This document shows positions 19,259 through 36,886 of a DNA stretch of 40,144 nucleotides, in pieces (position 1 is the stretch's first letter; the number at the start of each line of letters is the position of its first letter). The translations under genes and the position numbers were made by a program. The notes beneath the pieces are model-generated. The model searched no databases, was not told the origin of the DNA, and saw only the letters and a list, made by a program, of their open reading frames with translations. Source of the DNA: a virus; IMG/VR virus record IMGVR_UViG_3300027708_000005. One strand, given 5' to 3'.

Positions 19259-19282
19259 AATAAAGTCCTAATTAAAAAATAG

Positions 19283-20071: not shown

Positions 20072-20093
20072 TTCGATGTTTCCTTAAGAAACC

Positions 20094-20110
20094 CTGGTGT
20101 ATCGCACCAG
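20094..20110 (-). other. 6-bp stem-loop between the coiled-coil gene and the scaffold gene
   Basis: CTGGTG-tatcg-CACCAG. On the minus strand it is followed by GGUUUCUUAAGG, which contains the scaffold RBS. Confidence 0.4.
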
Positions 20111-20123
20111 TACGATTTAAAAA

Positions 20124-20621: not shown

Positions 20622-20630
20622 AGCTATTCC

Positions 20631-20936
20631 TTATGCGTAGTAGGATATATTGAGTTTAGCACTAGCTGTTTGCTCAATAAATTGAATATTTTTTAAATCG
20701 CCGTCGTATTGTAACGTAACGCCAGCAGCCAAAGGCATACCTACAGAAGCGGTAGGGGCCGTTCCATCATCGCGCCAACGAACGCCTTGTGTTTCAGGTG
20801 TAATTAACGCAAAAGTAGGCTTTTGGTTAAGACCTGTTTTATCAAGCAAAGGCACAGTAAGGCTTTGAGCCGAACTTAAACTAGTAATCTGTTGATAACC
20901 GATACATACGGTTATCGCTTTTAAATTCATAGACAT
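20631..20936 (-). CDS. Small beta-rich hypothetical virion protein
   Basis: 101 aa ORF, tightly packed. Contains ...GVRWRDDGTAPTASVGMPL...NISYYA. Confidence 0.5.
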   Translation of the reverse strand: MSMNLKAITVCIGYQQITSLSSAQSLTVPLLDKTGLNQKPTFALITPETQGVRWRDDGTAPTASVGMPLAAGVTLQYDGDLKNIQFIEQTASAKLNISYYA

Positions 20937-21053
20937 TTAATATCTCCCTCGTTCGGTAAGTGACCGAAGTTTTACGTAAAGTTGTTCTGCTGCCTGAATA
21001 ATACTACCAAAAAACCCGCCTGCAAAGAAATATCCACCAAAAAAGTTGCTCAT
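20937..21053 (-). CDS. Micro-ORF (38 aa), Gly/Phe-rich hydrophobic N-terminus
   Basis: MSNFFGGYFFAGGFFGSIIQAAEQLYVKLRSLTERGRY. It starts 1 nt after the upstream stop, and its stop abuts the next ATG. Confidence 0.45.
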   Translation of the reverse strand: MSNFFGGYFFAGGFFGSIIQAAEQLYVKLRSLTERGRY

Positions 21054-21054
21054 T

Positions 21055-21321
21055 TTAGCAATCCACGGCGCCTTCGTACTGGCTAAAAGTCTTTAATACC
21101 TCATAAATTGCTGGGATTAAATCACCTTTTAAATCTTCCATAGCGATGTAGTGAGCATCTTCACGCACAGTAGACAAATTCTGATGTTTTGCATCTTCGT
21201 TAAAGTAAATAGCTACTTGAACTTGTAATTGGTCTTTAGTGCCGTAAAAGTTAGTAATTTTGGCATAAGCTTCTTCTGCTGGTACGCCAAATTGAGTTGC
21301 TACTGATAGTTTGAGGGCCAT
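21055..21321 (-). CDS. Hypothetical protein downstream of the large fibre
   Basis: 88 aa ORF with normal packing. Confidence 0.55.
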   Translation of the reverse strand: MALKLSVATQFGVPAEEAYAKITNFYGTKDQLQVQVAIYFNEDAKHQNLSTVREDAHYIAMEDLKGDLIPAIYEVLKTFSQYEGAVDC

Positions 21322-21333
21322 ATTGTTTCCTTT

Positions 21334-23826
21334 TTAGTATGTCATTTCTGCTGTTTCGGCTTTTGCAACCCAACGAATTGTTGTAGAAGCCTGTCCTGTT
21401 ACTGTAATCTTTAATCCACCAAATGTTGTATCTGCTGTGGCAGTTACTGCCCAAGTTGCTGCGCCAGTATCTGTTGCTACTACTGTCGTTGTTACTGTTC
21501 CTACAATAGCAGTTGTACCTACACCAGCGCCACGCTTAATAGCACCTTCTAGTGTCCAAGCCTTTGTATCGCCAGCACCAGTTACACCAGCAATAACTCT
21601 GACTTTAAAATAATAAGCAGAGTTATTAGGTAGGATTATTTGGTTTGTGCCAGCAGGAGTATTTACATCTGAAGCCAATACTGTAGCAGTTGCATCGGTA
21701 GTTTGTCTAGCAAGAATTAATAATGCGGCTTGGTTTATTCCAGTACTTGCGGCGACAGGAGTATTACAAGCTGACATAGCTTGCATACCAGAAATGCCCC
21801 TAGTTGTTCCATAATAACCCCCACCAATAAAACTTCCTGCACTATTAGCTTGATTATTGCTACCACCAGCTATTGCTGCATAAGTTCCAGAAGCGTTATT
21901 AGCAACTCCTGCGCCAACAAAACTACTTTGACCAGAAGATGTGTTTCCATTAAATGTTGCAGAAGCTACACCGCCACCACCAATAAAAGCTCCTGTTCCA
22001 GAAGATAAATTTTTTATACCACCACATATAACAGAATAATCACCAGATGCCGCATTTCTATTAGCCGCAGTACCAGCATCACCACCGCCACCGATAAAGC
22101 TATATGAGCCTGTTGCTTGGTTATTACCACCACCGACTATTACTCCATGAGGTGTGTAGAAAGATAAAGTAACACCAGCAGCAGTTGTCGCATTTTGACT
22201 GATTGTGAATGTATAAGCTGTGCCAGTAATCGTTGTTGAGGCTACAGTCTGTGATACAGATACAGTCCAAGAAAGACCTGAACCACTAACAATATAAGTA
22301 CCAGCAGTTACACCAGTACCAGTTAGAACCATACCAGCAATGATTGTGCCTGATGCTAAAGAACCTACAGTTAGCGTTGTTCCGCTAATAGTAGAAGTGT
22401 TCATTACTGCAGCAGTACCAGTAGTTACTGTTGATGTTGCGTAGGTTGCAGAGTTAGAATTTGATATTGCAGTAATACCAGTACCTAATATTAATTGACC
22501 TACTTTAATGTTTGCATTAGTAGATGTTAAATAAAGTGTAGTACTAGCTGTTACTGCAATAGTTGTAACTTGTGTTGTTACTGCGGCAGATGCTGTAGCA
22601 GAATTAGATTCACCACCAACAATTGAATTAAAATAACCAGAAGCAGTATTTAAATGACCACCAACAATACTAGAATAACCACCAGAAATAGTATTTGATT
22701 GTCCAGCTACGATTGCAGATGCTGCGGCGGGACTTCCATTTATTGTGTTATTAATTCCTGAACCAACAAATTGATAACTATATGTAGCAGTATTTTGTGC
22801 GCCGCCAGCAATCACAGAAGATATACCAGCCGCCACTTGAGCCGCAGTAGCCCTACTTGTCTGCCAATCAACCGCATTAGCACCCCTAGCGTTACCGCCT
22901 GTTGCTGATGAAGTAGTTTTTTGTGCTTGTAATGCGCCTGTTCCTAAAGGTTGTAAGACTAATGGGGTATTTGTACCGCCAGTAGCGTAAACTCCAGGGT
23001 AAGAAGCATCACCAATAGCTTGAATATAAGTAGTTGAAGTAGTACCTAATGAAGCTGTACCAGTTGATTCTAAGGTGGTAAATTTGCCAGTATTAGGAGA
23101 AGTATTACCAATAGTAGGTGGGCTAGATAAATCTAAAGTACCGCCTAATGTAAGGTTTCCACTAGAAGTAACTGTGCCGCTAAGACTAATGCCTGAAACT
23201 GTACCTGTACCAGCTACGCTAGTTACTGAACCACTACCTTTGTTATTAAATGTAGTCCAATCAGTTGATGTTAAATAACCATTGGTTGTTGTATTGGCGG
23301 CAGCCATGCTAATTACAGGTGTTGTAGTGCCTGTGGCTACACTTACTGGTGCTGTTCCTGTAACACTAGTAACAGTACCACCGCTTGATGGGCTTGTATT
23401 AGTAACAGTAAAGCTAGGGTATGTTCCTGTTACAGAAATGCCTGTGCCACTTGCAATGGCTACAGTTTGGTCAGGTGCGCTATTAGTAATGGTAAAGCTA
23501 GGATATGTACCGCTAGTAGATATTCCTGTGCCAGCAGTTAATACGACTGTTTGATCTGGAGCCGTATTGGTAATGTTTAAAGTACCACTAGAGGTAATTG
23601 GACTACCAGTTACACTTATTCCTGTTCCACCCGTAGCTGCTACGCTTGTAACACTACCAACGCCTGTAACACCTGTAATTGAACCACCAGTAATATTGAC
23701 ATTATTGGCATCTTGCTCTGCCATTGTGCCAACCCCACTTAATGTGTGGTTAGCATCCCAAGCAGTAGCGCCAGTAGCGCTAAAAGTGCCGTCTGCTAAA
23801 GTAGAGTGTTTTACAACGACGGCCAT
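21334..23826 (-). CDS. Large fibre/adhesin-like protein with tandem 29-aa repeats and Hep_Hag/YadA-like Gly-rich repeats
   Basis: The ORF-track 846-aa ORF trimmed to ATG 23826 (MAVVVKHSTLADG..., 830 aa), which overlaps the upstream stop by 1 nt. Repeats APDQTVVLTAGTGISTSGTYPSFTITNS / APDQTVAIASGTGISVTGTYPSFTVTNT. TNGYLTSTDWTTFNNK motif. Multiple GG.N.A.G.YS.I.GG units. Confidence 0.75.
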   Translation of the reverse strand: MAVVVKHSTLADGTFSATGATAWDANHTLSGVGTMAEQDANNVNITGGSITGVTGVGSVTSVAATGGTGISVTGSPITSSGTLNITNTAPDQTVVLTAGTGISTSGTYPSFTITNSAPDQTVAIASGTGISVTGTYPSFTVTNTSPSSGGTVTSVTGTAPVSVATGTTTPVISMAAANTTTNGYLTSTDWTTFNNKGSGSVTSVAGTGTVSGISLSGTVTSSGNLTLGGTLDLSSPPTIGNTSPNTGKFTTLESTGTASLGTTSTTYIQAIGDASYPGVYATGGTNTPLVLQPLGTGALQAQKTTSSATGGNARGANAVDWQTSRATAAQVAAGISSVIAGGAQNTATYSYQFVGSGINNTINGSPAAASAIVAGQSNTISGGYSSIVGGHLNTASGYFNSIVGGESNSATASAAVTTQVTTIAVTASTTLYLTSTNANIKVGQLILGTGITAISNSNSATYATSTVTTGTAAVMNTSTISGTTLTVGSLASGTIIAGMVLTGTGVTAGTYIVSGSGLSWTVSVSQTVASTTITGTAYTFTISQNATTAAGVTLSFYTPHGVIVGGGNNQATGSYSFIGGGGDAGTAANRNAASGDYSVICGGIKNLSSGTGAFIGGGGVASATFNGNTSSGQSSFVGAGVANNASGTYAAIAGGSNNQANSAGSFIGGGYYGTTRGISGMQAMSACNTPVAASTGINQAALLILARQTTDATATVLASDVNTPAGTNQIILPNNSAYYFKVRVIAGVTGAGDTKAWTLEGAIKRGAGVGTTAIVGTVTTTVVATDTGAATWAVTATADTTFGGLKITVTGQASTTIRWVAKAETAEMTY

Positions 23827-24302
23827 CAGGTACTCCAAATTTCTGTAGGGGCGGTTGGGAATACTGCATCCCATGTAGGGTTTACGGCAATGTTTCTAAT
23901 AGTGCTTCTGTATGCAATAAATTCAGCTTGGTTTGTAAGGTAAGGGTTTGACTTAGCAGGGTCAGCCACATCAGCAATAGAAGTCCAGTCAGTATTAGTA
24001 AGGATTTGTTTTGCTTGTGCAGCGTTTTGGTCAGCTTTTTGTTGCTCGTTATACGCAATTTGTTCAGGCGTTAAGTCTACAACCACCCATACTTGATACC
24101 ATTGGCCAGCGGTTTGCTCTGGCGTGGTTTGTTGAACTGCCTGAGTAATGGGATTGTAAGAAGGTTGTGGCGACTCCAATACAGGCTCATAAGGCGCTGG
24201 CGCTACAAATGGAGTTGGAAAGCTAGTATTAGGGTACTCAGCCTGTATTTGTGATTGATATACAGGGTACGCTAGTGTTTGAGTGTTAATAAATGTTGTC
24301 AT
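23826..24302 (-). CDS. Tail-fibre assembly/chaperone-like protein
   Basis: 158 aa. The C-terminal half (ILTNTDWTSIADVADPAKSNPYLTNQAEFIAYRSTIRNIAVNP) resembles the fibre-chaperone motif tDW...D......W..YR..LR. Confidence 0.5.
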   Translation of the reverse strand: MTTFINTQTLAYPVYQSQIQAEYPNTSFPTPFVAPAPYEPVLESPQPSYNPITQAVQQTTPEQTAGQWYQVWVVVDLTPEQIAYNEQQKADQNAAQAKQILTNTDWTSIADVADPAKSNPYLTNQAEFIAYRSTIRNIAVNPTWDAVFPTAPTEIWST

Positions 24303-24310
24303 AATTTGCC

Positions 24311-26278
24311 TTATGCTATCGCCAAGAAAATGTAAGAAGCACCACTAATATTAACAGTAGCGTTAGCGGTTGAAGTTAAAGTAAACCCTGTAGAAGCAGC
24401 GTAGCAGCCGTTGTTGCCTGTAGTTTGTGCTGCGGTACTATTTAATAAATTGTATGGACTAGAACTACTTGTAAATCCATCAGAAGAATTAAAAGCATAC
24501 CAATCTCCAGTAGAATCTGTACGCTTAATCATTACAAACCTAGCGCCACCAGTAAAGCCACAGTTAATTGTTTGAGTAGCACCTGTGCCTGTGAATGAAC
24601 CAACTTTAGATACTCCAGGGCAAGTAGCAAATAAGTAAATTACTACATTTACTCCAGTACCTTTGGTTGAACCACCAGCGCCATTACGAATTCCCGTTGG
24701 GTCTATTGTTGTTGCATTGAAATAACTTGAATAAACAAAACTTGGTAAGTAACCACCAGATGTAGTGTTTATTGAAAGATTGCGAATATTTCCAGCATCA
24801 TTTACAGCACCCATCCAGTTACTTCCTGAATTTCTAGTTTTAACAAATATTAATTCGGGTGTTACACCTAAATTATGCGTAACTGGAGTGCCGTTAATAA
24901 AATCTGGTGAACAAACCTCATCAAAAAATCCTGGTCTGCGAGAAAAATTGTAACTGCTATACGGTCTTCCAGGGGGGTCAGAATAATTTACATATCCAGT
25001 TGAATCTGGCCCAAGTATAACAGCAGTATTAGATGCAAAACTTGATTGTGCAGTATCTGTAACTTCAGCAGAAACTTGACTAGTAGCTAAACATTTAGAT
25101 GCGCCTCTTAATCTATCAAAAGTATTATTTACCGCTCCGTAATAAGCCATTGTTATGAATAAATCAACAGGAAAATTGGTTGTAATATTATTTGTACTGT
25201 TATTTCCAGTATAAGCTACAGGTTTAAACACAGTAGTAGCATCTGTAGGCACTTTCATTGGTCTACGGATTGCCATGTAGATGTAAGTATCACCAGAAAC
25301 ACCAAAGTTAGGGCTGTAAAAATCAAACCCTGTAGCAGTAGGAATAATTCCTTGACCACCAAAAGAATGTTCGGCGGTAGCAGTATTTGGGTTTAAATCA
25401 TAACAATTTGTTTGGCTCATTCCTCGCATAACATCAAATACATACCAACCTGAAGTACCGCTAGACATTTTTACTAAAACATATTGCGCTTCATATCCAA
25501 GATTAACCGAAACAGTGCCGCTAGTTGTTGTTAAACTACCACAACTAATCACATTGTCTGACCCTGTTGTGCCAAATCCACCAGCGTTATGGGCAAATAG
25601 GTAGGCTACATAAGTACCACCACTAGCATTTACAGTTGCATCAGTTCCAACTGTAAAAACAGAAGATGTAGGGATTGTACTATTCCAACGAGTTGTTCCT
25701 GTAGCTTTTGCTGCTGTGCTATTTAAAACAAGGTATTCAGTATTTGCTAAAGAATTGCTATAAACTTGCCAATCAGCAGTAGTGTCTGTTCTTTTAACAA
25801 TAATCATTCCTGGCACAGAACCAAGGTTGTGATTAATGTTTTGTGCTGAACCTGTACCATTATAAGTAATTACATTAAAAAACTTAGATTGTTTACGAAA
25901 TGTCCAAGAGCAATAAGTATATCCATCTTGATTAGTCCACCCACCTGTATCTGAATCATTCCCTAAAGTAAACCCATTTGAATTAAACGAATTAATTAAA
26001 GAAGTAGCTGCATAATTTGCAGCTGTTGAATTGCTGCGAAGAACATTGTTTGCGCCTCTAACAGTATCACAAAGCACATTACTTTGAGCGCCTGTAGAAC
26101 GACATTTAACCCAAGTCATTCCACCTTTACCAGCTAAATCTATGCCATTGTTTATAGTTTGCGTTGATACACCAGGGTTTCCATTACCTGTATATAAATA
26201 GGTACTAAATACATCTTCAATGTAATTGGCTGTTGTACTAGCACCACTAGCAGCGCTTAATAGGTCACGAACTGGCAT
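24311..26278 (-). CDS. Virion protein built of six tandem ~100-aa beta-sandwich-like repeats
   Basis: 655 aa. The recurring pattern F..V.Y.G.G....I.H.LG..P...IVK.R.....W.V......L.LN.T.A......F......VN.SG..Y...LFA is seen six times. Confidence 0.7.
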   Translation of the reverse strand: MPVRDLLSAASGASTTANYIEDVFSTYLYTGNGNPGVSTQTINNGIDLAGKGGMTWVKCRSTGAQSNVLCDTVRGANNVLRSNSTAANYAATSLINSFNSNGFTLGNDSDTGGWTNQDGYTYCSWTFRKQSKFFNVITYNGTGSAQNINHNLGSVPGMIIVKRTDTTADWQVYSNSLANTEYLVLNSTAAKATGTTRWNSTIPTSSVFTVGTDATVNASGGTYVAYLFAHNAGGFGTTGSDNVISCGSLTTTSGTVSVNLGYEAQYVLVKMSSGTSGWYVFDVMRGMSQTNCYDLNPNTATAEHSFGGQGIIPTATGFDFYSPNFGVSGDTYIYMAIRRPMKVPTDATTVFKPVAYTGNNSTNNITTNFPVDLFITMAYYGAVNNTFDRLRGASKCLATSQVSAEVTDTAQSSFASNTAVILGPDSTGYVNYSDPPGRPYSSYNFSRRPGFFDEVCSPDFINGTPVTHNLGVTPELIFVKTRNSGSNWMGAVNDAGNIRNLSINTTSGGYLPSFVYSSYFNATTIDPTGIRNGAGGSTKGTGVNVVIYLFATCPGVSKVGSFTGTGATQTINCGFTGGARFVMIKRTDSTGDWYAFNSSDGFTSSSSPYNLLNSTAAQTTGNNGCYAASTGFTLTSTANATVNISGASYIFLAIA

Positions 26279-26279
26279 A

Positions 26280-27251
26280 TTAAGCCATCGCCTTTCCTAG
26301 AACAAAGCCATTCCAAGTAGTGCCGCCGTCTTCAGTGAAGAAGCCTAGTACATCACGCCCTGAAGCAGTCAATGTAGGGGCAGTGCCACTAGCCCATTTA
26401 ACACCAGACCACCAAGTAACCGCAGAAGAACCACCATTAGTTAGGTCAAAAATTAAACTATTTACTGTGCCACTAGAGGCTGTATTGCTTACAGTAAAGG
26501 TTGTTGTTGTGCTAATTGTTTTGGTAAAGTAGTTGCCTAAAGACAAATCAATATTAGAAGCTGCAATTGCTATTTGCGTTTCTTTTACACCTGTCATAGT
26601 GGCAGCAGTTGCCAAAGCTAATACGGTGCCTGTTCCGCTAGTCGTATAACTTGTACCCCATGCAGAGCCTGTGGAATTACCAATACCCGCGCCAGGGTAA
26701 GTCATTGGGGCGGTATTTGTTACGGTAATTGAACCGCTAGTAGTAATAGGGCCACCGCTTACAGAAATACCTGTACTTGCGGTTAAATTAACTGAAGTTA
26801 CAGTGCCACTACCCCCACCACCACCTGCGGCATTAATAGTAATTGCTGTAGATCCATTGTAAGTGCTACCAGTACTAAAAGTAATATTAGTACCCGCAAT
26901 TAAGTTAGCTAAATTGCTACCTAAACTAATACCAGAAATAGTAGAGTTAAGTAAACCTGCATTAGGTATACCAGTAATATTAGTGCCAACTAATGTAGAA
27001 GGTGTGCCAAGATTAGGTGTAACTAATGTAGGGCTTGTAGCTAATACGTTATTACCTGTGCCTGTATTAGTTACACTTACTAAAACGCCGCTTGAATCTG
27101 TAGCAACGGCTTTAGAAACATCTAAAGTAGTAGCTGATACAACTAATGCCCCACTTGTATTTGGAATTGTAATAGTGTTGGTTGACGCTGTATTTGGGCC
27201 ACTAATTGTAGTTGACCCGCCAAGCGCCGCATTAAAGACTAAATTACCCAT
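26280..27251 (-). CDS. Thr/Ser/Gly-rich fibre-like protein
   Basis: 323 aa. GSGTVTSVNLTASTGISVSGGPITTSGSITVTNTAP resembles repeats in the 830-aa fibre. Confidence 0.65.
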   Translation of the reverse strand: MGNLVFNAALGGSTTISGPNTASTNTITIPNTSGALVVSATTLDVSKAVATDSSGVLVSVTNTGTGNNVLATSPTLVTPNLGTPSTLVGTNITGIPNAGLLNSTISGISLGSNLANLIAGTNITFSTGSTYNGSTAITINAAGGGGGSGTVTSVNLTASTGISVSGGPITTSGSITVTNTAPMTYPGAGIGNSTGSAWGTSYTTSGTGTVLALATAATMTGVKETQIAIAASNIDLSLGNYFTKTISTTTTFTVSNTASSGTVNSLIFDLTNGGSSAVTWWSGVKWASGTAPTLTASGRDVLGFFTEDGGTTWNGFVLGKAMA

Positions 27252-27260
27252 AATGTTTCC

Positions 27261-27623
27261 TTACGCTAAAAAGCGAAGCTTATAGAGGGTTGATAAATAC
27301 AATTGAATAATATTATCAATCAATTGTTGCATTGATGTATCTGTTTTTTCACAAACATCGTATCTTGCGCTTTCAATTTCTGCAAGTTGAGATTCAAGAA
27401 ATTCAATTACATTGGTTGTTTTTTTAGCCGACATTAGGGTAATCGGGCCAATCAAATTGTGCCGTCCCTGATATGCCTCAGCGAAATCGTCTGCCGCATC
27501 AATAATACTCTCGTAAAATTTTTGCAAAGCTTTATGTTTTGCATAACTACGGGTGTTTAAATGAACTGAATGAGTTACATCACGAGCTAAGAATAAAATT
27601 CCTACAAAATCAGCGGCTTTCAT
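27261..27623 (-). CDS. Four-helix-bundle protein with a faint Dps/ferritin-like pattern (hypothetical)
   Basis: 120 aa. THSVHLNTRSYAKHKALQKFYESIIDAADDFAEAYQGR loosely parallels the Dps pattern HW...G..F..LH..f.e.y.e....D.iAER. The start overlaps the portal stop. Confidence 0.3.
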   Translation of the reverse strand: MKAADFVGILFLARDVTHSVHLNTRSYAKHKALQKFYESIIDAADDFAEAYQGRHNLIGPITLMSAKKTTNVIEFLESQLAEIESARYDVCEKTDTSMQQLIDNIIQLYLSTLYKLRFLA

Positions 27624-29842
27624 TGTGGCATTCCTTGTGGTGGCATTGGTTGACCTTGTGGTTGTTCCATTTGCTGTTCTTTTTGTTCTTCTTCTTGCAT
27701 ATCCATGCTAGTGTCACGTTGCATTTCGGTGACGAGATCGCCGTTTACCATCATTCCATGCACGGTTCCCATAACAATGTCTTGAATTTGCTCAGGTGAC
27801 ATAGACGCTTGAACCGCAGCCAAACGCTTAGTTTCAGCGTCAAATAACTTGATTTGCGCTTCAAAATCTTTGCGTTCTAGGTCTTGCATTTCAATTGAAT
27901 GACCGACATTTTGAAGCATAGAGTGCATACCTTCCATCTCTTTGCCCATTGCTTCAATTTGCTGTTGAGCAGCTTGCAATGCAGGATCTTCGTCAGTATC
28001 AGCCATTAATTTAGGATCAATGGTTTTTTCTAAGCGTTTAGCCATTTCTTGTGCGCCAGGCCAATCCATATTTTTAACAAATAAGTCGCCAGCCACTTTC
28101 CATAGCTCTGGGTTGCCTTGCAAAATCTGAGCCATAGCTTCAAGCGCTTCTTGACGTTTAGTCATATAGCCTGGGCCTGTAGTAGCCACAACGTCATAAA
28201 TACCAACGCTAGGGTTATAAACTTTTTCAATCACAATGCCTTGTTGATCGACAATTTTTTTAACTGGTTCGGGTTGGTCAGGATTAATCTTAACCATAGA
28301 CACTTCACCATCTACACCTACAATGCGAGCAATACGCTCGGTATCGTAAATTTTAGGAATAAGGTCAATTAATTGACGCGTTGCAAAGCGAATCGCTTTT
28401 GTTAAGTTGTCGCCGTAATGGAAAGTACCTACATCGCCTTGACGCTCGCGCGCAAGAATGGCTTTACCCGAACGCTCGTTGCTTGTAGCGCCTAAACTAG
28501 AATCATATTGACCAGTTGTAGATTTAATATCGTCGCTTGCACCCATTTTGGCTTGAATCAAACCAGTTTGTGCCAAAGGTGGCGGGGCGCGTTGCGGTAA
28601 TGGCAACGTAGCGCCCATACCATCGGTTACATCAGGGTTTACCTCTAAATATGGCCAATTGGTTGTGTTAGCGGTTTTCCATTGGGTTTCATAACCTTCA
28701 AATTGACCGCCATAACCGATAAATGGTGCTTTTGGAGCCAATGCAAGCATTTCTGCTTCTTGTGATACCCAATAGTTGTACATACGTTGTGCATCTTTGG
28801 CATTACGAACCAATCCAGACACAAAAATACGACCATCTACTTCAAATTCATTGCCTACAACACGGATCACAGGTATCCATTTGCCTGCCCATTCTTGTTC
28901 TTGTAGCACTTCATAGCCATTGGTTTTCATCCAAATAACTTTTTTGACATCTACCGTGCGAGATTTAATGGGTTTTAAGCCCATTTCTTTCATATTCTTA
29001 TCTTCAGGGCTACCATCGTAAAACGCTTGGTTGCCTGGGTACAAATTGAGCTTAGTTGGAACGTGTTTGTAATAGAAATACTCAACAATACGAATGGTAT
29101 CTTCATTTAGCCATTGGCTTAAAGATTCATCGCCTACACCTTGGGACAAAATGGAACTAATTGGCGCTGCATCAGGATATTGACGTTCATATTCCGCTTT
29201 TTCCATATCTTGACTGATAAAACAATACTCAGCATCACAGCCAGCAGGGTCTTGGATCATTGGATCCATGTAAACGCTAAATGCGTTACGAATACGACCT
29301 AAACGAATGTCTTGGTCAAACGAATTATCGTAACAATACTCAGTTAGAATACGAAAATACCCTTCGCCGTACGTTACTTGGTTTTCGCAAGCAGTGTCGT
29401 ACACTACATCGGCGTCAGACATATACTCAATATGCCGAACCATACCTTCAAACACTTCTGCTACTTCAATATCGCCTTTATCGTCCGCAGGGATTACTTT
29501 TCCAGAGGGTCGGTTTTGACGTTGTTCGTTCGTCACTTGACGAACGTGTTGCGGTAATTTGTTAATTGTTAGGCAAGGTCTTGCGTTAATAGTTTGTCCT
29601 TGAACAGAGCCACGCGTTGCCAATACGTCAGCAGGCCATTGCCATTGATTGTCTGGTGAACCAGCCATAAACCTTAAATCGTCAAGCTCATCTTCTCTTG
29701 ATTCAGAATACGCAGACATCGCCATCGTAAAACGATGACGCATAGTAGCTAGAACATCTGATTGTTCGTCTGGGCCTGCGGGGTTGCCGCCTACGTTGGC
29801 AACTTTGCCAACAATATTCATCGAGGTTTGGTCATACGCCAT
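27620..29842 (-). CDS. Portal protein (P22 gp1-like)
   Basis: 740 aa, close to the P22 gp1 size. Located after terL. The N-terminal pattern (DDLRFMAGSPDNQW, RPCLTINKL, VTNEQRQNRP) matches my recollection of P22-type portals. Confidence 0.8.
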   Translation of the reverse strand: MAYDQTSMNIVGKVANVGGNPAGPDEQSDVLATMRHRFTMAMSAYSESREDELDDLRFMAGSPDNQWQWPADVLATRGSVQGQTINARPCLTINKLPQHVRQVTNEQRQNRPSGKVIPADDKGDIEVAEVFEGMVRHIEYMSDADVVYDTACENQVTYGEGYFRILTEYCYDNSFDQDIRLGRIRNAFSVYMDPMIQDPAGCDAEYCFISQDMEKAEYERQYPDAAPISSILSQGVGDESLSQWLNEDTIRIVEYFYYKHVPTKLNLYPGNQAFYDGSPEDKNMKEMGLKPIKSRTVDVKKVIWMKTNGYEVLQEQEWAGKWIPVIRVVGNEFEVDGRIFVSGLVRNAKDAQRMYNYWVSQEAEMLALAPKAPFIGYGGQFEGYETQWKTANTTNWPYLEVNPDVTDGMGATLPLPQRAPPPLAQTGLIQAKMGASDDIKSTTGQYDSSLGATSNERSGKAILARERQGDVGTFHYGDNLTKAIRFATRQLIDLIPKIYDTERIARIVGVDGEVSMVKINPDQPEPVKKIVDQQGIVIEKVYNPSVGIYDVVATTGPGYMTKRQEALEAMAQILQGNPELWKVAGDLFVKNMDWPGAQEMAKRLEKTIDPKLMADTDEDPALQAAQQQIEAMGKEMEGMHSMLQNVGHSIEMQDLERKDFEAQIKLFDAETKRLAAVQASMSPEQIQDIVMGTVHGMMVNGDLVTEMQRDTSMDMQEEEQKEQQMEQPQGQPMPPQGMPQ

Positions 29843-30110
29843 TTAGTATTCCGATCACATCAGGCTCACGCATCATAAGCAGTTCCTCGCCATCGACTGT
29901 GACCTTTTGCCCGGAAAATTCACCGAATAGCACATGGTCGCCTTCTTTGACGTTCATAGGCTCAAGAAACCCTTTTGGATTTTTCTTGCCTTCACCAATT
30001 GCCACTATGATACCGCTAAATAATTTATTTTGGGGTAAAACTATTAATTGTGATAATTTTTCTATGTCTTGACGAATTAAAACACAATTACTTAGAGGTT
30101 TTAGACTCAT
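29832..30110 (-). CDS. groES: GroES / Cpn10 co-chaperonin homologue
   Basis: 92 aa. KPL..CVLIR, a mobile-loop-like segment retaining IVL, G.IVAIGEG, VKEGDHVLF and DGEELLMMRE.DVIGIL all align along E. coli GroES as recalled. Confidence 0.8.
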   Translation of the reverse strand: MSLKPLSNCVLIRQDIEKLSQLIVLPQNKLFSGIIVAIGEGKKNPKGFLEPMNVKEGDHVLFGEFSGQKVTVDGEELLMMREPDVIGILNGV

Positions 30111-30250
30111 TTTTTGGTTTTGCCTTTGTTGGCTTCTTTTTTGACAGAATAGGCGATTGCGACCGCTTGCTTGACGGGGCGACCGCTTTTGACTTCGGCT
30201 GCGACGTTTTTACGGAAAGCTTCTTTACTTCCTGACTTTTTGAGAGGCAT
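30107..30250 (-). CDS. Micro-ORF (47 aa), basic conserved-looking phage peptide
   Basis: MPLKKSGSKEAFRKNVAAEVKSGRPVKQAVAIAYSVKKEANKGKTKK. AGGAG lies 5 nt before the ATG, and the stop overlaps the groES ATG (ATGA). Confidence 0.65.
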   Translation of the reverse strand: MPLKKSGSKEAFRKNVAAEVKSGRPVKQAVAIAYSVKKEANKGKTKK

Positions 30251-30316
30251 GGTTGCTCCTGTATGTTAGGCTTTTTACGGCCAAAGTTAAAAAGTTCTAA
30301 AATTGTTTTCCACATT

Positions 30317-30472
30317 TTACTTACCTTTTTTAGCCGTCTTAGCAGATTGTTTAAAATCTTTAGCTGTCGGTGCGCCTGCGCTGCCAGGCTTTCTCATTTT
30401 CTCGCCGCTACCTGCTTTAATACGAGCTTGTTTAGCGTGTATGTTTGCGTACAGTCCTGGTTTAGTTGCCAT
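30317..30472 (-). CDS. Micro-ORF (51 aa), basic peptide
   Basis: MATKPGLYANIHAKQARIKAGSGEKMRKPGSAGAPTAKDFKQSAKTAKKGK. The ATG overlaps the terL stop (TAATG). Confidence 0.6.
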   Translation of the reverse strand: MATKPGLYANIHAKQARIKAGSGEKMRKPGSAGAPTAKDFKQSAKTAKKGK

Positions 30473-32001
30473 TATGATCCCATCCATGAGTTAATTGCTG
30501 CGCTTTGACTTTGATACGTTTGTTTTCGCATTGTACCTTTAGATTCCCGATGTGCAACAGGAAACGCAAAAGTTAGTGCAATAGCGTCTGCACTGTCTGG
30601 GCTAGATAGCCCTCGCGCCTTCATGTCTTTTTTAGACTCCAAATAGATGGCGCCTTTACTGTCCGGTTTCATCAGCGGGCTAATCAAATCCGTCTTGAGC
30701 ATCTTCTCTTTAGGGATGCTTGCGCTTTTGAGCCAATCCTTCATCTGTCCCCAAATCTGCGCTCTCATGTTGCCGTACATCATGGGGTTGCGTGACTTGT
30801 TTGCGAAGTTTACGCCTCTGATTTTGTAGCGTTGCTCTTTGAGCCGATCGACCACGCCTGCCCCTAGCCCACCTTCGTCGATTGCCACTACCGCTGGCTG
30901 ATACTGCTCAATCGCTTCAATCACATGACCCACCACCACCATCGTATCATCACCCTTGAAGCGCCTAATCTCTACGATGTCGCGCCCTTGACGCACTGCA
31001 ATAACAGTTGAGTCAGACCCAAATCGTGCAGGGTCTACACCAACAACAATCGGCGCAGAGTCATCTTGCCATTTGTCCCGTTTCATAGCGTCATCTACTA
31101 GTAAGGATGGTATAAATTGATCATCCCCTTCTGATGGAAATGAACCATACACTTCAACGTGCGCTTGGTACGAGTCAGGGCCGTATTCTTCAATAATTTG
31201 GTTGTACACGTTCTTGTCGGTGCCTTCTACATCCCTAGCATCGACTTGCCGAGATTGCCAAAAATCCCGTTTGCTACCCTCGATTGCTTCATAGAAGTAG
31301 CCTGTGTTGCGACGCGGGTTTGAGAAACAACACCAAAAACGGTTCGGTGTGTTCTCTGTAAAGAAGCCGCTTGTCACCGCCCAGATGGAGTCGTCAATAC
31401 CCGATGCTTCGTCAAACACGACCATTACGCCATCATAGTTGTGAACACCCGCGAACGCATCAGGATTCTCAGCCGACCACAGTCTGCCTTCCAAGTTCCA
31501 GTAGCGGGTGCCTTTCTTGAGGTCGCGCTCAACCAGTTCAGTCAGCCATTTGGCGGGCATCACCCGTGTTGCTGAGATTTCCCACCAGTAGGTGTTCACT
31601 GACATCGACGACCATTTAGTGATTTCAGCCCAAGTGACTGACCGAAGCTGCGACTCGGAGTTAGCGGACACAATGACTGTCGAACCAATCCTTGTAGTCA
31701 TCATCCACAAGACTAGCCAACTGACTAGTGCCGACTTGCCAATACCACGACCAGAGGCAATCGCTAGGCGCAGTACATCAAAGTCCACTTTGCCGTTGTT
31801 CTTTTTGATGTGATCTGCCAAGTCAGTCAAGACCTGGCGCTGCCACTTGCGTGGCCCAGTGAAGTGTTCTAGCGGTGTGCCAGGCTCACCCCAAGGGAAC
31901 GCAAACATCACGAACGCTAGTGGGTTGTCTTTAATGGCTGGACTCCATAGCCGCGCCATGAGTTCCATTTCATCTTGGGCGGAATAGCGGGGTTCTTGCA
32001 T
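30472..32001 (-). CDS. terL: Terminase large subunit
   Basis: 509 aa. Walker A SGRGIGKS, Walker B VMVVFDEA, nuclease-domain acidic motifs VGVDPARFG, AIDEGGLG, DSADAI. Confidence 0.92.
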   Translation of the reverse strand: MQEPRYSAQDEMELMARLWSPAIKDNPLAFVMFAFPWGEPGTPLEHFTGPRKWQRQVLTDLADHIKKNNGKVDFDVLRLAIASGRGIGKSALVSWLVLWMMTTRIGSTVIVSANSESQLRSVTWAEITKWSSMSVNTYWWEISATRVMPAKWLTELVERDLKKGTRYWNLEGRLWSAENPDAFAGVHNYDGVMVVFDEASGIDDSIWAVTSGFFTENTPNRFWCCFSNPRRNTGYFYEAIEGSKRDFWQSRQVDARDVEGTDKNVYNQIIEEYGPDSYQAHVEVYGSFPSEGDDQFIPSLLVDDAMKRDKWQDDSAPIVVGVDPARFGSDSTVIAVRQGRDIVEIRRFKGDDTMVVVGHVIEAIEQYQPAVVAIDEGGLGAGVVDRLKEQRYKIRGVNFANKSRNPMMYGNMRAQIWGQMKDWLKSASIPKEKMLKTDLISPLMKPDSKGAIYLESKKDMKARGLSSPDSADAIALTFAFPVAHRESKGTMRKQTYQSQSAAINSWMGS

Positions 32002-32453
32002 TATTTAGCGTTTGCCAGTTCTTTTGTTTGTTTGACTTCGGTATAGGTTACTTCTTGGGCATCTTCTGCCTGCGCTAACGCTACGCGTTGCTGCGCCATT
32101 TCTAGCGCTTGGTTGATGGATATATGTTGGTCTATATCAACATTGATCTGTTGCTTGGCCACCCAATCGTGTTGATTTTGCAAGATGGTTGTGGCTGCTT
32201 TGATGTCGCCTTCTAGCGCTGCGTCATGCAGCACTTTGGACATAGCCATCTCTGATTGGGCGCGAGCTTTCATTTCAGCGTATTCGACAATTGGATCAAA
32301 CTGGCACAACTGGCGGTATTCAGAAGGCAGCATTCCAACAGCGATAGCTAGGCGATCGCCTTTAAGCCCAAGACGTGCAGCTTCCATGATGGCTTCTAGC
32401 CGACCTTCTGTGGCTTTTAGCTGACGAGGTTCGTATGGAAAGCTTTGGAACAT
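32001..32453 (-). CDS. terS: Terminase small subunit (HTH type)
   Basis: 150 aa. Immediately upstream of terL and overlapping it by 1 nt. The HTH-like segment GLKGDRLAIAVGMLPSEYRQL and the following helix pattern are typical of podovirus small terminases. Confidence 0.65.
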   Translation of the reverse strand: MFQSFPYEPRQLKATEGRLEAIMEAARLGLKGDRLAIAVGMLPSEYRQLCQFDPIVEYAEMKARAQSEMAMSKVLHDAALEGDIKAATTILQNQHDWVAKQQINVDIDQHISINQALEMAQQRVALAQAEDAQEVTYTEVKQTKELANAK

Positions 32454-32612
32454 GAAGCGGATGTTATCACTTTTTAATAAAAAATAAAAATTGTTCGTGA
32501 AACCTCCGTAGTTACAACTCCAAATCGCAAGGCCCTACCCGGGGGCCTCAAATTGGAAGCTAAATTCTAGTAGGTTAGCAGCCGCTAACTTTTAGCTGGC
32601 AGCTTGTGGCTT

Positions 32613-32996
32613 GTTAGTCATGTAGTCATGACTACGCAAGTCGCACAAAACAACCAGGCATTTTCTTTTTTGCTGACGGGCGCGGTCATGATGTTAGTCA
32701 TGTTAGTCATTAGTTTTCAGATGACTAACATGACTTACAAATAGCAGGGGGTTTTTTGCCGATAGCGCAGAGCAGGGGCGAAAATGTTAGTCATGTAAGT
32801 CATGTAGTTGACTAACTCAAGTCGCTGGCTTATAACATCTGTGGCGTAAATACAACAAATATACAACCTATTAACATATACCTATTTTAAATGACTACAT
32901 GACTAACATTAAGCATTTTTCCTTATTTCATATAGCCCTTCGCGTTAGTCATCGCATCCAAAAACATGACTAACATTTGACTAACCAATGACTAAC
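32613..32996. repeat. Array of the octamer TGACTAAC / GTTAGTCA (11 perfect and at least 4 degenerate copies, both orientations)
   Basis: GTTAGTCA at 32613, 32693, 32702, 32786, 32944. TGACTAAC at 32722, 32809, 32900, 32967, 32978, 32989. Variants at 32622, 32731, 32795, 32892. Confidence 0.95.
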
Positions 32997-33018
32997 AGAA
33001 CTATTTTTACGAAAAGTG

Positions 33019-33047
33019 TTGACAAGTGTAAAAGAATCTTTTACAGT
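33019..33047 (+). promoter_or_regulatory. Near-consensus sigma70 early promoter
   Basis: TTGACA (33019-33024), a 17-nt spacer, then TACAGT (33042-33047). The first early ATG is at 33104. Confidence 0.75.
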
Positions 33048-33103
33048 TCTAAGTAACGGCAACTTATCGCCGTTTTAATCCACTAATTGAAAGGTAATCT
33101 ACT

Positions 33104-33322
33104 ATGAAAAACTACTTAAATATTGAAAAATCCGCATTTCACCACGGCGAATATGTTGGTTATGCTGGCGGTAAAGTTTACACAATCCGTAAGTCTAATA
33201 GTTCTTATGGTAATTGGTTTGCATATAACCGCGATGATTATAACGATCAAATTTTTGCATTTGGGCTTGATAACTTGTCGCAAAAACTAACCGCAGCCGC
33301 TAACGAACTGGCAGCCGCTTAA
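33104..33322 (+). CDS. Early hypothetical protein (72 aa)
   Basis: First ORF after the early promoter, with an AAAGG RBS. Confidence 0.65.
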   Translation: MKNYLNIEKSAFHHGEYVGYAGGKVYTIRKSNSSYGNWFAYNRDDYNDQIFAFGLDNLSQKLTAAANELAAA

Positions 33323-33343
33323 CATATTTGTAGTGGATCGCCA

Positions 33344-33365
33344 GCCGGCGGGCGTTATCGCCGGC
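33344..33365 (+). other. GC-rich stem-loop between early genes 1 and 2
   Basis: GCCGGCG-ggcgttat-CGCCGGC. The downstream sequence ACTTATTC is only weakly U-rich. Confidence 0.4.
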
Positions 33366-33395
33366 ACTTATTCACTAAACGAAAGGTTTTAAAAA

Positions 33396-33722
33396 ATGAA
33401 AACAACAGTAGATTTATATGATTTTCGCCGCGAATTCGCACAATGCCGGCCCGATAATTTTAGTTATGAGGGTTTAAGCATTTTATTTGATTATCTCGAA
33501 GAATTAGGCGACGGCTGCGGCGAAGAAATAGAGTTAGACGTTATCGCCCTATGCTGCGATTTTTTAGAAGCCAGTCCTAAAGAGATTGCGGACGCTTATG
33601 GTATTGAACTCGACCCTGATGATGATACTGAGGTCAATTTTGATAAGGTGTTTGCCTATCTTGCTGACCACACTAGCGTTATTGGTCATACTGACACCAC
33701 TATCGTCTATCAAAACTTTTAA
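33396..33722 (+). CDS. Strongly acidic early protein (candidate DNA-mimic / anti-restriction type)
   Basis: 108 aa with 15 Asp + 11 Glu versus 3 Lys + 3 Arg (counted by hand). AAAGG RBS. Confidence 0.7.
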   Translation: MKTTVDLYDFRREFAQCRPDNFSYEGLSILFDYLEELGDGCGEEIELDVIALCCDFLEASPKEIADAYGIELDPDDDTEVNFDKVFAYLADHTSVIGHTDTTIVYQNF

Positions 33723-33732
33723 GGGGCCGCAA

Positions 33733-33831
33733 ATGAAAAAAGAACCATCATTGTGGGACATTCTGGGCGCGTGCATCATGGGCGCGATTCTTGGCGCATT
33801 TCTAGCTTATAACGCGCTGGGAGGGTTTTAA
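33733..33831 (+). CDS. Micro-ORF (32 aa), single-TM peptide
   Basis: MKKEPSLWDILGACIMGAILGAFLAYNALGGF, with an AAGGGG RBS. It is the C-terminal, RBS-preceded part of the ORF-track 81-aa ORF. Confidence 0.5.
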   Translation: MKKEPSLWDILGACIMGAILGAFLAYNALGGF

Positions 33832-33833
33832 TT

Positions 33834-34010
33834 ATGCGAATTAGAGCCAAAGCCGACATAGTTTCAGAAATTAAAGAAATATTGGCCGCAATAGAACGCG
33901 ATTTAGACCCATTTTTAAGGGGCGACGTTATGAATTACACCGGCTATTTAGCAGAAAATGCTGACGAGTTAAATATTTTAATTCAAAGCTTATTAGGAGA
34001 GTCAAAATAA
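33834..34010 (+). CDS. Early micro-ORF (58 aa)
   Basis: Open frame checked codon by codon. It starts 2 nt after the previous stop. Confidence 0.5.
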   Translation: MRIRAKADIVSEIKEILAAIERDLDPFLRGDVMNYTGYLAENADELNILIQSLLGESK

Positions 34011-34144
34011 TGTTTACAGTCATCTATAAGACTTATATGGGCGGGATTGAATCCTTAGCCTGTCGCAGATTTACAACCAAAGCCAACGCAACAACATTCG
34101 CCCGCAAAGTGGGTGGAACTATTGAAAAGAGGATATTCAAATGA
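34010..34144 (+). CDS. Early micro-ORF (44 aa)
   Basis: TAATG overlap with the previous ORF. Open frame checked. Confidence 0.45.
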   Translation: MFTVIYKTYMGGIESLACRRFTTKANATTFARKVGGTIEKRIFK

Positions 34145-34308
34145 CAAAAAACTTTTATTTAGTCTATGCCTACTATGCTCACAGACCTAAGTTTTTACAG
34201 GGTTTTTGGTCAAGTAATGAGGCTTTTCAGTTCAAAAAAGAGTATGAGGAAAAAGAAAAAGACACCCCTCAATTTGAAATTTGTTATGTGGAGGTAGAAC
34301 CAAGATGA
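34141..34308 (+). CDS. Early micro-ORF (55 aa)
   Basis: ATGA overlap at both ends. Open frame checked. Confidence 0.5.
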   Translation: MTKNFYLVYAYYAHRPKFLQGFWSSNEAFQFKKEYEEKEKDTPQFEICYVEVEPR

Positions 34309-34505
34309 ACACCTACCAAGTTTTTAGCGTACACAATACGCTGATCAGCGCACACGATAGCCCAAGCGTAGCCCTCAAACACGCTTTGATTTATCAGCAC
34401 GTCACAGGGCAACCCGCCCACGTTGAGCAAGTAACGGACGCAATGTATCAGGCTCAGGACGATCTAGCCGATTGGCAAGCGCAAGGGGGTGAACAATGCT
34501 CATAG
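34305..34505 (+). CDS. Early hypothetical protein (66 aa)
   Basis: The ORF-track ORF trimmed to ATG 34305, which overlaps the upstream stop (ATGA). Confidence 0.6.
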   Translation: MNTYQVFSVHNTLISAHDSPSVALKHALIYQHVTGQPAHVEQVTDAMYQAQDDLADWQAQGGEQCS

Positions 34506-34560
34506 CCCTTGCAATATTGGGAGTTAGCGCCCTGTTAATCGTTCTTTTAGACCTCTAATA

Positions 34561-34587
34561 AAAAGCCCCTTAATTGGGGCTTTTTTT
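34561..34587. terminator. Bidirectional rho-independent terminator between the early operon and the primase-helicase gene
   Basis: AAAAGCCCC-TTAATT-GGGGCTTTTTTT has an A-run upstream and a T-run downstream. It lies between convergent genes. Confidence 0.85.
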
Positions 34588-36886
34588 ATTTCACCAACAC
34601 CATCTTAGGCGGCGGGTTTTCTTCTACCATCCGGCGCAACTCTGATTTAGGCGTATCGCTTAGCTCTGGCGCACAGAAAATATGCTTTTTACTGGTGTAA
34701 TCCCTTGACATTAATCTACCACAATCAACCCAACCCGCTTCTTTTAACGCGTGTAACAATGCGGCCTGTGGCACCTTAACACCGCTGGGCGCCTGCCCTG
34801 TAAGCCGATCACAAAGCGAATGAAAGGGTGAGCCTATAACCCCCCGTGAAAACTCCCCTGTGCGGTTTCTAAGCATTTCTACAAGGTACGATTCAGCCAT
34901 ACTCATGCCATGCTCTATTAAATTCTGTTTAAACTCAGTCATCGCGGGCGCTGCTGATGGGTTAAACGCGCTAACATTACGCGCCATAAACCATTTAGCG
35001 ATTGCAGCAAAGCCACCTGATCTATACCAATCCCAAATCTTGCGGGCGCAATCTGAATTCATACGCGGCGCCGTTGACCATACACAGAACCATCGGCGGT
35101 CTTGCGTTGCAAGCGAAATAGGCACCGGATCATTACTAAACGCCAACACAAACAAGCGGTTGGCCATCTGATAAGGGTGCAAGCCCTTGCGATTGATTGG
35201 CAGCATCTCAGGCGGCGCGGCGATGATTGGCTTAAGTTGATTAGCTAATTGCCGACGCGTTGCAGCGTCAGGCTCTTTTAATTCGTTAATAATCAATATT
35301 TCAGATTCAAGCTGATAACCCCATTGACTGTTTACGCTGTTGTTATCCATGATGCCGCGATTCTTTAAATGATCGCCACAAACCGCCCATATAAACGGCG
35401 CCCAAAATGTATCCTTTCCGCTACCTTCATCACCAGCGTGTAAGATTGCGTGATTGACTTTGATCTTTGGGTTTTGCACTTTGAAAGCCATCACATCAAA
35501 AATATGGTTTAGTTCATCTGACTCTGGCACAAGCTCTTTACAATGATCCATCCACATAGAAATATCAGCGCTGTCAGCTTGAGCGACACTTGGTCTAGCA
35601 TCACGCCAACGATTGCCGAACAAGTCGCCATCACGCGTGACAATGACATCCTCACCAGCAGCGTAGGTCACACCTACTAACGCTTTAGCACCATTAGCTT
35701 GACGATTCTCATCAAAGCAGATTGATGCCTCTACCTTGCGCCCTGTATGAATAGATTTGCATGGAATATGACGAAACAATGCGTTAAATGTCTGGCGGCT
35801 AACTTCGCGTCTATCTTGCATATCAAAATAGGACTCATCGTCTTGAATGTAAGCAAAGCGGTTGTACCAATCAGCCTTTTCGATACGTCCCAACTCTTTA
35901 CGCTCTACCTCTGCAATCAATTCGGCAGCCGTATCACGATAAACATCATTTGGGGTTAATTTTGACAGGGCATCGCTCATCTTTTCTGCAAGCAACTCAT
36001 CACGCAAACCATGATCAACTTTTGGGCCACCATTATTGGCTACCCAATCGAGAAACATCTGAGAACTAAAGTCCACGCAATGACCATGCAAACAGCAGAA
36101 TGACCTATCAAGGGGTTTATACCTACCCTCAATATTTCCATCGGTATGCTCTGCGTTATTAGGGCAAACGACTGCCATCCAACCCTCACCATTAGCAGGC
36201 GACATAATTAGACCTTGCTCGTTAAGCCAAGTCACTACTGAATCTTTACCTGTGTCAGCTAGGCGTATTGCTACATTTGTAGCAGTATCAGCAGGGTCAG
36301 GCACCACATCAAGCGCAGCGCAGATATCTTCAAGGTTATATTCAAGTTCAGGTTTGAAATGTATCAATGTTGATACAAAGTTATTACGTCCAGGTTTTAA
36401 GTTCACAGATCCTGGCAGACGGAAATTACGCACTGCGTTAGTCGCGCCCGGATCCGTGTAGCCTGCCTTGGCAATGGCTTTGATTGCTGCGGTGAAATCA
36501 CCTTTAGTTGGTTGCTCTTTAAAAGCATAACCCCATTGGTATGAACCCTCTGAAGTTTCCATGATCCAAGTAGGCGTAAGCGGTGGCTCTTTAGACTTAG
36601 TGCCAATGTCATCTAACATCATTACAAGGACGTATTCACAATTAGCGGCGGATGCTGATACTTTGCCATCAGCAAAACGGTCTAATATAAACGAGCCTGT
36701 ATTGCCATAAATTGCCCAATCCTTTTTGATTTTAGCTGTTGGTAAAAACGCAGGCCATGTGCATTTAATCGTGCCATCAGCATGAGTTTGCATCATGCCA
36801 TTGCCATCTAGTTGTGGCTTTTGCCTGACAATTAAAGCAGTTTCGCCTTCAGGTGCTAGGTTCGTGATATATTCTACAAAGTTCAT
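34586..36886 (-). CDS. Bifunctional primase-polymerase / SF3 (P4- or D5-type) helicase
   Basis: 766 aa. N-terminal prim-pol-like domain, Cys/His zinc element CPNNAEH...CCLHGHC, C-terminal Walker A GDEGSGKD and a downstream helicase region. Confidence 0.8.
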   Translation of the reverse strand: MNFVEYITNLAPEGETALIVRQKPQLDGNGMMQTHADGTIKCTWPAFLPTAKIKKDWAIYGNTGSFILDRFADGKVSASAANCEYVLVMMLDDIGTKSKEPPLTPTWIMETSEGSYQWGYAFKEQPTKGDFTAAIKAIAKAGYTDPGATNAVRNFRLPGSVNLKPGRNNFVSTLIHFKPELEYNLEDICAALDVVPDPADTATNVAIRLADTGKDSVVTWLNEQGLIMSPANGEGWMAVVCPNNAEHTDGNIEGRYKPLDRSFCCLHGHCVDFSSQMFLDWVANNGGPKVDHGLRDELLAEKMSDALSKLTPNDVYRDTAAELIAEVERKELGRIEKADWYNRFAYIQDDESYFDMQDRREVSRQTFNALFRHIPCKSIHTGRKVEASICFDENRQANGAKALVGVTYAAGEDVIVTRDGDLFGNRWRDARPSVAQADSADISMWMDHCKELVPESDELNHIFDVMAFKVQNPKIKVNHAILHAGDEGSGKDTFWAPFIWAVCGDHLKNRGIMDNNSVNSQWGYQLESEILIINELKEPDAATRRQLANQLKPIIAAPPEMLPINRKGLHPYQMANRLFVLAFSNDPVPISLATQDRRWFCVWSTAPRMNSDCARKIWDWYRSGGFAAIAKWFMARNVSAFNPSAAPAMTEFKQNLIEHGMSMAESYLVEMLRNRTGEFSRGVIGSPFHSLCDRLTGQAPSGVKVPQAALLHALKEAGWVDCGRLMSRDYTSKKHIFCAPELSDTPKSELRRMVEENPPPKMVLVK

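Follow-up and report, generated by a model that had tools for sequence, protein, structure and literature searches.

The array of short repeats upstream of terS in the analysed window, i.e., the whole phage genome of 40,144 bp, is probably the replication origin of the phage, with iterons that would be bound by a winged helix in the primase-helicase encoded by the phage itself. Origins of this kind, in which iterons are recognised through the winged helix of a self-loading SF3 primase-helicase, are known already; what is new here is the AEP-type primase, the single array placed 1.6 kb from the initiator gene, and a hypervariable specificity code, which is localised to the wing and seen at the level of populations. 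Among the papers listed by literature searches on the group and on the mechanism, we found none with a description of such an array-wing system. An earlier note on this DNA had offered three hypotheses for the array, namely origin iterons for the 766-aa primase-helicase similar to those of P4 alpha, cosB/pac sites for TerS, and an operator array, and it had left the binding protein unnamed. The first hypothesis became strongly supported, with the class of the repeat co-varying with the wing, and on the basis of sequences and a predicted model the winged helix of the primase-helicase can now be put in the place of the unnamed protein as a specific candidate.

The array sits in a 650-bp intergenic region between divergent transcription units. 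The minus-strand unit comprises terS (32001-32453), terL (30472-32001) and structural genes; terS starts at 32453, and the distance of 160 bp from there to the first site, given earlier, was correct. The plus-strand unit is a cassette of small genes (33104-34505), convergent with the minus-strand replication genes, which include the primase-helicase (34586..36886), a family-A DNA polymerase and others. The replication module runs across the window ends and contains a DUF2800 exonuclease, a VRR-NUC-like endonuclease and an SNF2 helicase. Between the array and the stop codon of the primase-helicase, 1.6 kb away, lies the early cassette, and a bidirectional terminator is found at 34560-34585. A sigma-70-like early promoter on the plus strand (33019..33047; TTGACA-17-TACAGT, 10 of 12 positions matching) is placed so that it would drive this cassette, and its -35 region is kept in relatives of other motif classes.

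The octamer TGACTAAC had 11 exact matches when both strands of the whole genome were searched, all of them in 32613-32996; no copy was found outside these positions. The minus-strand copies start at 32613, 32693, 32702, 32786 and 32944, and the plus-strand copies at 32722, 32809, 32900, 32967, 32978 and 32989. The shuffled genome contained the octamer 1.08 times on average and five times at most, and none of 100 shuffles reached 11. The search thus reproduced the count and all positions listed in the earlier note, as well as its remark that about one copy would be expected by chance and that none had been noticed elsewhere; the comparison with shuffled controls, which it had proposed, placed the clustering of the octamer far beyond chance. 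Five degenerate copies, at 32622 (GTAGTCA), 32629 (TGACTAC), 32731 (TGACTTAC), 32795 (GTAAGTCA) and 32892 (TGACTAC), bring the array to 16 sites in 384 bp; the copy at 32629 is additional to the four that had been noticed before. Variants of the octamer with one mismatch were not enriched genome-wide (32 observed vs. 30.6 expected), so the signal lies in exact copies of the motif and in the way they cluster. The repeat unit exceeds the octamer, being about 9 bp long (ATGACTAAC), with an extended consensus of approximately ACATGACTAACAT. The doublets described earlier are present, in the form of 9-bp units arranged head-to-tail.

The sites are organised in several parts. Iteron cluster A (32613..32635; two minus units and one plus unit) consists of GTTAGTCA, GTAGTCA and TGACTAC, includes the perfect 14-bp palindrome GTAGTCATGACTAC (32622-32635), and occurs also in the same-class relatives L060, L083 and L163. 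Cluster B (32692..32739), kept in the same three loci and in L164, comprises two head-to-tail doublets with 9-bp spacing, which face each other across a 10-bp spacer; a 19-nt inverted repeat is found here (32692-32710 / 32721-32739), with arms 95% complementary and 10 nt apart. Cluster C (32786..32816) contains GTTAGTCA, GTAAGTCA and TGACTAAC. It is followed by a class-independent element, GCTGGCTTATAACAT (32824..32838), bordering an AT-rich centre (32834..32933, 70-80% AT) that has iterons of clusters C and D on its two flanks. The centre is a candidate DNA-unwinding element, and an AT-rich block occupies the corresponding place in relatives. The reverse complement of GCTGGCTTATAACAT, ATGTTAYAAG, was present in 43 of 99 arrays, belonging to three motif classes, at about 460 bp from terS; the element could be a host-factor site or a start point of melting or priming. 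Iteron doublet D (32892..32907, plus strand; TGACTAC and TGACTAAC) is the best-conserved doublet position across classes, being represented by TGTGGACAATGTGGACAA in L021, TTGGGTCATTTGGGTCAT in L150 and TGTAGGTAATGTAGGTAA in L132. A single minus-strand iteron, E (32944..32951), is followed by the plus-strand triplet F (32967..32996), whose three copies follow one another with 11-bp phasing, leaving 22 bp between the last of them and the TTGACA at 33019. Left of the AT-rich centre there are six minus and four plus units, and right of it five plus units and one minus unit. The palindrome, the inverted repeat with its spacer and the phased end of the array had all been pointed out before and were found as described. 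An Rfam scan of the region gave no RNA family, and GC skew was uninformative for the location of an origin, since it follows the direction of transcription.

No match to the intergenic region, or to the 20-kb stretch 14000-34000, was obtained among GenBank phages by blastn or megablast, and relatives were therefore found through proteins. The protein search gave two GenBank relatives, MW202483 and DSL-LC05 (OR003940), the paper on the latter being a genome description only (PMC10611076), and hundreds of related uncultured freshwater contigs in IMG/VR. In the related uncultured freshwater phages TerL is 74-96% identical and the layout of the array is kept, i.e., doublets in corresponding places, AT-rich centre, neighbouring early promoter, GCTGGCTTATAACAT and GC-rich spacers, within a surrounding scaffold that is homologous. 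The set for comparison of arrays consisted of 99 non-redundant related loci including the region upstream of terS. As the top k-mers from the entire stretch that follows the primase-helicase gene were contaminated by unrelated GC-rich tandem repeats, the interval searched for units was anchored on terS instead. Only a few relatives carried TGACTAAC itself. Nearly all others had an array in the same place with another unit, among them TTGTCCACA, ATGACAATTTGACC, ATGACCCAA, ACCCACAA, TTGCCTACA, TAGCCTAA, TGACAAAA and TGTAAAC. When the units were aligned in register, T2, G3 and C5 were constant and the remaining positions differed. Every copy within an array is replaced in a coordinated manner (approximately 100 loci), and genomes with replication proteins otherwise about 90% identical have exchanged at least nine classes of iteron. 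A search for arrays with a changed motif in related phages, suggested in the earlier note, thus brought out the same layout with a different unit. Such replacement in concert at positions kept across the loci, together with the failure of any shuffle to reach 11 copies, leaves a practically negligible probability for chance or selfish simple repeats without function.

Scanning of metagenome contigs with a 15-nt motif returned mostly chance matches, the only relatives being L329 and L363, and a scan of genome contigs returned one chance match (Pediococcus) and one small MAG contig.

The primase-helicase combines an N-terminal RepB-type primase of the AEP kind (Pfam RepB_primase, PF16793, E 1.5e-5), a DUF5906/SF3 helicase core (DUF5906, E 3.6e-10; NrS-1 helicase 6k9c, E 1.4e-4) and a predicted C-terminal winged helix; no Toprim/DnaG match was found in the Pfam search of the protein. 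The C-terminal domain (aa 660-760, 34607..34909, minus strand) was modelled by AlphaFold2 with 89 homologues, giving pLDDT 92.5 and pTM 0.84, and the predicted topology, helix-strand-helix-helix-strand-loop-strand, is that of a winged helix. Helix 3 (aa 707-717, PQAALLHALKE) is nearly invariant across classes. The wing loop RLMSRDYTSK (aa 724-733, 34688..34717, minus strand) co-varies with the iteron sequence, and in the model residues 726, 728 and 731 fall within the loop connecting the last two strands, which is the wing tip. Foldseek searches against PDB with a 177-aa and a 101-aa model gave no significant match, the best having E 0.17. The non-significant matches were mostly winged-helix proteins (RTP, PadR/Pex, MarR, cullin WHB), and 1KA8 was absent among the 50 matches listed. 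The winged-helix fold class is supported at the level of a predicted model. No similarity to the P4 alpha C-terminus was detected by hhalign, and therefore the likeness to the P4 alpha domain is functional only, homology not being demonstrated. Among most relatives the primase-helicase is 87-91% identical whatever the motif, with the exception of one short C-terminal stretch, and about 65 different wing sequences were counted among 240 database homologues.

This variable stretch is paired with the repeat unit. The wing of the window, RLMSRDYTSKK, goes with ATGACTAAC, R[LI]KSRE[FY]D[TS]KK with TTGTCCACA, RLASHDYPSKK with ATGACAATT/TTGACC, RVASGDFQSKK with ATGACCCAA, RLYSREYTTKK with TTGCCTACA, and R[LV]KSRE[FY]GTKK with CCCACAA. 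Column-wise adjusted mutual information (AMI) with the motif class was calculated for 54 full-length primase-helicase proteins and was 0.90 for M726, 0.79 for T731 and 0.63 for R728, as compared to 0.29 or less for the other columns of the protein. Columns of TerS reached at most 0.21 and those of TerL at most 0.24, and ORF clusters of the early cassette stayed at or below 0.12. In addition, 15 window proteins, including the exonuclease, VRR-NUC, SNF2 helicase, PolA, gp201 and several small ORFs, were scanned with residue 726 as the class label, so that the value of 1.0 for M726 is definitional and the values for the other proteins are informative; the highest column AMI was 0.42, in two non-replication ORFs with small n. 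Among structural genes the scans extended as far as TerL. The gap in identity between pairs of the same and of different class was 0.32 for the wing, 0.016 for aa 1-700 of the primase-helicase and 0.005 for helix 3, compared to 0.044 for TerS (about 0.04 for its N-terminal 60 aa too) and 0.033 for TerL. Across the compared sequences the unit class tracks wing residues 726, 728 and 731 and nothing else tested. The exonuclease, VRR-NUC, SNF2 helicase, PolA, gp201, TerL and the early-cassette proteins were considered as binders and rejected, being without co-variation.

A tree of primase-helicase aa 1-700 shows 16 changes of class (18 with shuffled labels, the minimum being 5) and 14 changes of residue 726. 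The concordance between residue 726 and class is complete, M occurring with TGACT in 8/8, A with ATTGTCA in 8/8 and K with TCCACA in 35/35 cases. Many switches with full concordance mean that the pairing was kept or re-created through many independent recombination events. The wing codons and the array are 1.6-3.3 kb apart, and the sequence between them is hypervariable and does not co-vary; given this gap and the repeated switches, simple linkage is not an explanation. Out-of-sample cases followed the same pairing. The ENA/JGI proteins P0004 (RLMSRDYTSKK) and P0046 (RLMSRDHTSKK) adjoin TGACT[AGT]AC arrays, P0090 (RLKSREFGTKK) adjoins a CCCACA array, and L329, which was found through the DNA motif, has the wing RLMSRDYTAKK. 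For the novel wings P0152, P0163 and P0155, the encoding contigs either stop short of the array or carry a very long early cassette.

The same comparison bears on the proposal that the small terminase recognises the repeats as sites of the cosB/pac type, which we now consider very improbable. The array begins 160 bp from the start of terS, and in lambda the R sites lie upstream of Nu1. However, the two TerS types, about 80% and 60% identical to that of the window, are shuffled relative to the repeat class: L066 has the window motif with a TerS only 59% identical, whereas L011, L039 and L046 have a TerS 81% identical and yet a different motif. The low AMI of TerS columns and its small class gap, N-terminal 60 aa included, leave TerS without co-variation, and this contradicts recognition by the terminase. 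The block 32484-32537 described below, which is nearer to terS, is better suited as a candidate packaging or late-promoter signal.

It also appears unlikely that the array serves mainly as an operator field, by which the winged helix of the primase-helicase, as a repressor, or another regulator would silence the early promoter at 33019 and/or the divergent terS/late operon or control their timing, as had been the third suggestion. The location between divergent transcription units and the short distance of 22 bp from triplet F to the -35 are in line with such a role, and iteron-binding plasmid initiators often regulate promoters too. Nevertheless, no site overlaps the -35 or the -10, and triplet F is poorly conserved in relatives. 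L060, L083 and L163, of the same class, keep only one of the three promoter-proximal sites intact; the distance from site to -35 varies from about 22 to 47 bp in same-class relatives, and it is the doublets round the AT-rich centre that are kept instead. Moreover, no small early protein co-varies with the class, and the initiator gene is not under the early promoter. Binding of the initiator near the early promoter might still influence regulation in a secondary way.

The co-variation, as a result obtained from sequences, is a specificity pairing and by itself does not prove replication initiation as opposed to some other transaction of the initiator with DNA. The sites might accordingly be bound by the winged helix for pairing or handcuffing, for partition-like anchoring, or for exclusion of co-infecting relatives, and P4 does need a second cis site, crr, with a role which is not simple initiation (P4 annotation). 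We give these options a low probability, somewhat above that of terminase recognition, as there is a single array in the genome, an AT-rich centre between opposed iterons is the classical layout of an origin (PMC9371898), and no other candidate origin repeat was seen. Three marks expected of an iteron origin were found here: both the repeat cluster above chance and the AT-rich region flanked by iterons are present, and the initiator of matching specificity is represented by the predicted winged helix with its wing co-varying with the iteron class.

Binding, melting and the start of replication at this place are what we infer from the anatomy of the array and the specificity pairing, together with the precedents of P4 alpha, pRN1 ORF904 and SaPI Rep. 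In the origin model, about 16 iterons (ATGACTAAC, on either strand and for the most part in head-to-tail doublets) flank the AT-rich centre of 100 bp, and the 9-bp iterons would be recognised by the C-terminal winged helix of the 766-aa primase-helicase. The nearly invariant recognition helix PQAALLHALKEAG probably reads the core T2-G3-C5, and M726, R728 and T731, at the tip of the beta-hairpin wing, probably account for recognition of the variable positions of the unit. By analogy to self-loading SF3 initiators, multiple protomers bound to the doublets would form rings on both flanks of the AT-rich centre, 32834-32933, and would then melt it. The first primers would be made by the N-terminal AEP primase, after which the family-A DNA polymerase of the phage may take over.

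Among known systems, P4 alpha carries primase, SF3 helicase and a C-terminal winged-helix origin-binding domain in one polypeptide (PMC2777425), and the same combination is predicted for the primase-helicase here. The 8-bp repeats of P4 ori and crr, TGTTCACC, are likewise found in both orientations, as doublets and triplets with 9-11 bp spacing (P4 annotation). The differences are that the P4 primase is of the bacterial DnaG type (PMC2777425), whereas the present one is of the RepB/AEP type (PF16793); that P4 depends on a pair of separate arrays, ori and crr, whereas there is one array here and no copy of the motif beyond 32613-32996; and that no match in sequence or fold was detected between the two winged-helix domains. 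In SaPIs a C-terminal winged helix recognises short iterons with element-specific specificity, and the origins have six to twelve iterons split by a central AT-rich region, in opposed orientations (PMC9371898). The present array resembles those of SaPI Rep/PriRep in having iterons on both sides of an AT-rich centre, predominantly opposed (6-/4+ on the left, 5+/1- on the right). SaPI iterons are, however, penta- or hexanucleotides, compared to 9-bp units at 16 sites here, and the SaPI origin is immediately downstream of rep, whereas our array lies 1.6 kb off, past an unrelated early cassette, between the early promoter and terS. The order of AEP prim-pol and SF3 helicase is shared with pRN1 ORF904 and NrS-1, and pRN1 ORF904 has also a winged helix C-terminal to the SF3 helicase, for which the cognate site could not be found experimentally (PMC2777425). 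In the present phages, by contrast, natural co-variation points to the cognate site. Another point of comparison is the lambdoid phages. There the specificity of the N-terminal domain of the initiator O and the ori iterons co-diversify among near-identical phages, the iterons are contained within the O gene, and the O protein is neither helicase nor primase. Here, the iterons are intergenic, and the determinant appears to be the wing loop in a winged helix fused to a helicase.

An extension of the origin model, which we hold with slightly more doubt than belief, is that abundant freshwater podophages possess a diversifying system of replication specificity, with selection for private origins in co-infection and a readable wing code. 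If true, private origins would act in the manner of replicon incompatibility or anti-cheating, and residue 726 (M/K/A/Y) together with residue 731 (T/D/G/Q/P) would determine the bases at positions 1, 4 and 6-9 of the 9-bp unit. With the origin model itself, replication specificity would be a fast-evolving, recombining trait in natural phage populations, like the immunity specificity of lambdoid phages. The assignment of the origin would provide widespread uncultured freshwater phages with an origin and an initiator-DNA recognition element from sequence alone. Dozens of wing variants with paired 9-bp sites, on an otherwise constant protein and origin scaffold, form a natural swap series, usable to learn how the wing of a winged helix reads DNA and to design orthogonal origin/initiator pairs.

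Several further observations were made on the region and its relatives. A conserved, class-independent block, which is a candidate for a late promoter or a packaging signal, is located on the minus strand at 32484-32537, at a distance of 30-85 bp upstream from the start of terS. At fixed distances from terS, GGCCCTA (TAGGGCC on the terS strand) was present in 76 of the 99 related loci and ATAAAAATTGTT (AACAATTTTTAT) in 65. The two TerS types are shuffled among phages with TerL 92-96% identical, which indicates that a recombination boundary separates the two genes. In the cassette that extends from the early promoter to the primase-helicase, gene content is hypervariable and length ranges from 1.6 to more than 6 kb; the cassette of L163 includes a DNA pol III beta-like gene, and the first early gene of the window (33104-33322, 72 aa) had no homologue among the 82 related loci searched (L001-L082). 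The early cassettes of MW202483 (L001 4510-4806) and DSL-LC05 (L002 1245-1556) carry the annotations "DnaA protein helix-turn-helix" and "repressor protein C", genes of which no homologue was detectable in the window. In several relatives, GC-rich short tandem repeats closely downstream of the primase-helicase (CAGACCAG, repeated 22 times, CTGGCATC, AGCTGCCG and CAGGCGGG) were seen about 250-3400 bp past its stop codon in L031 and L116, and also in L061, L151 and L018, with none in the window. Small ORFs over the array of the window (e.g., 32604-32744) are probably spurious; in L165 (11677-12087) the public gene call puts a 136-aa ORF over the iteron array.

The commonest iteron class among related loci was TTGTCCACA (e.g., L021 5890-6230 and L091), which is one base off the bacterial DnaA-box consensus, TTATCCACA. 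Some related arrays contain TATCCACAA, and host DnaA might use or compete for origins of the TTGTCCACA class. Doublets of TGACTAAC/TGACTAC in both orientations were also observed in L280 (ENA OBLH01000826, 9.6 kb; 1989-2440), where no BLAST-detectable homologue of the window proteins tested was found; L280 is possibly an independent replicon with a convergent or related iteron. Finally, one homologue of the primase-helicase is labelled as a protein of a Polynucleobacter MAG, which gives a hint at the host, and this freshwater podophage group may possibly infect Polynucleobacter.
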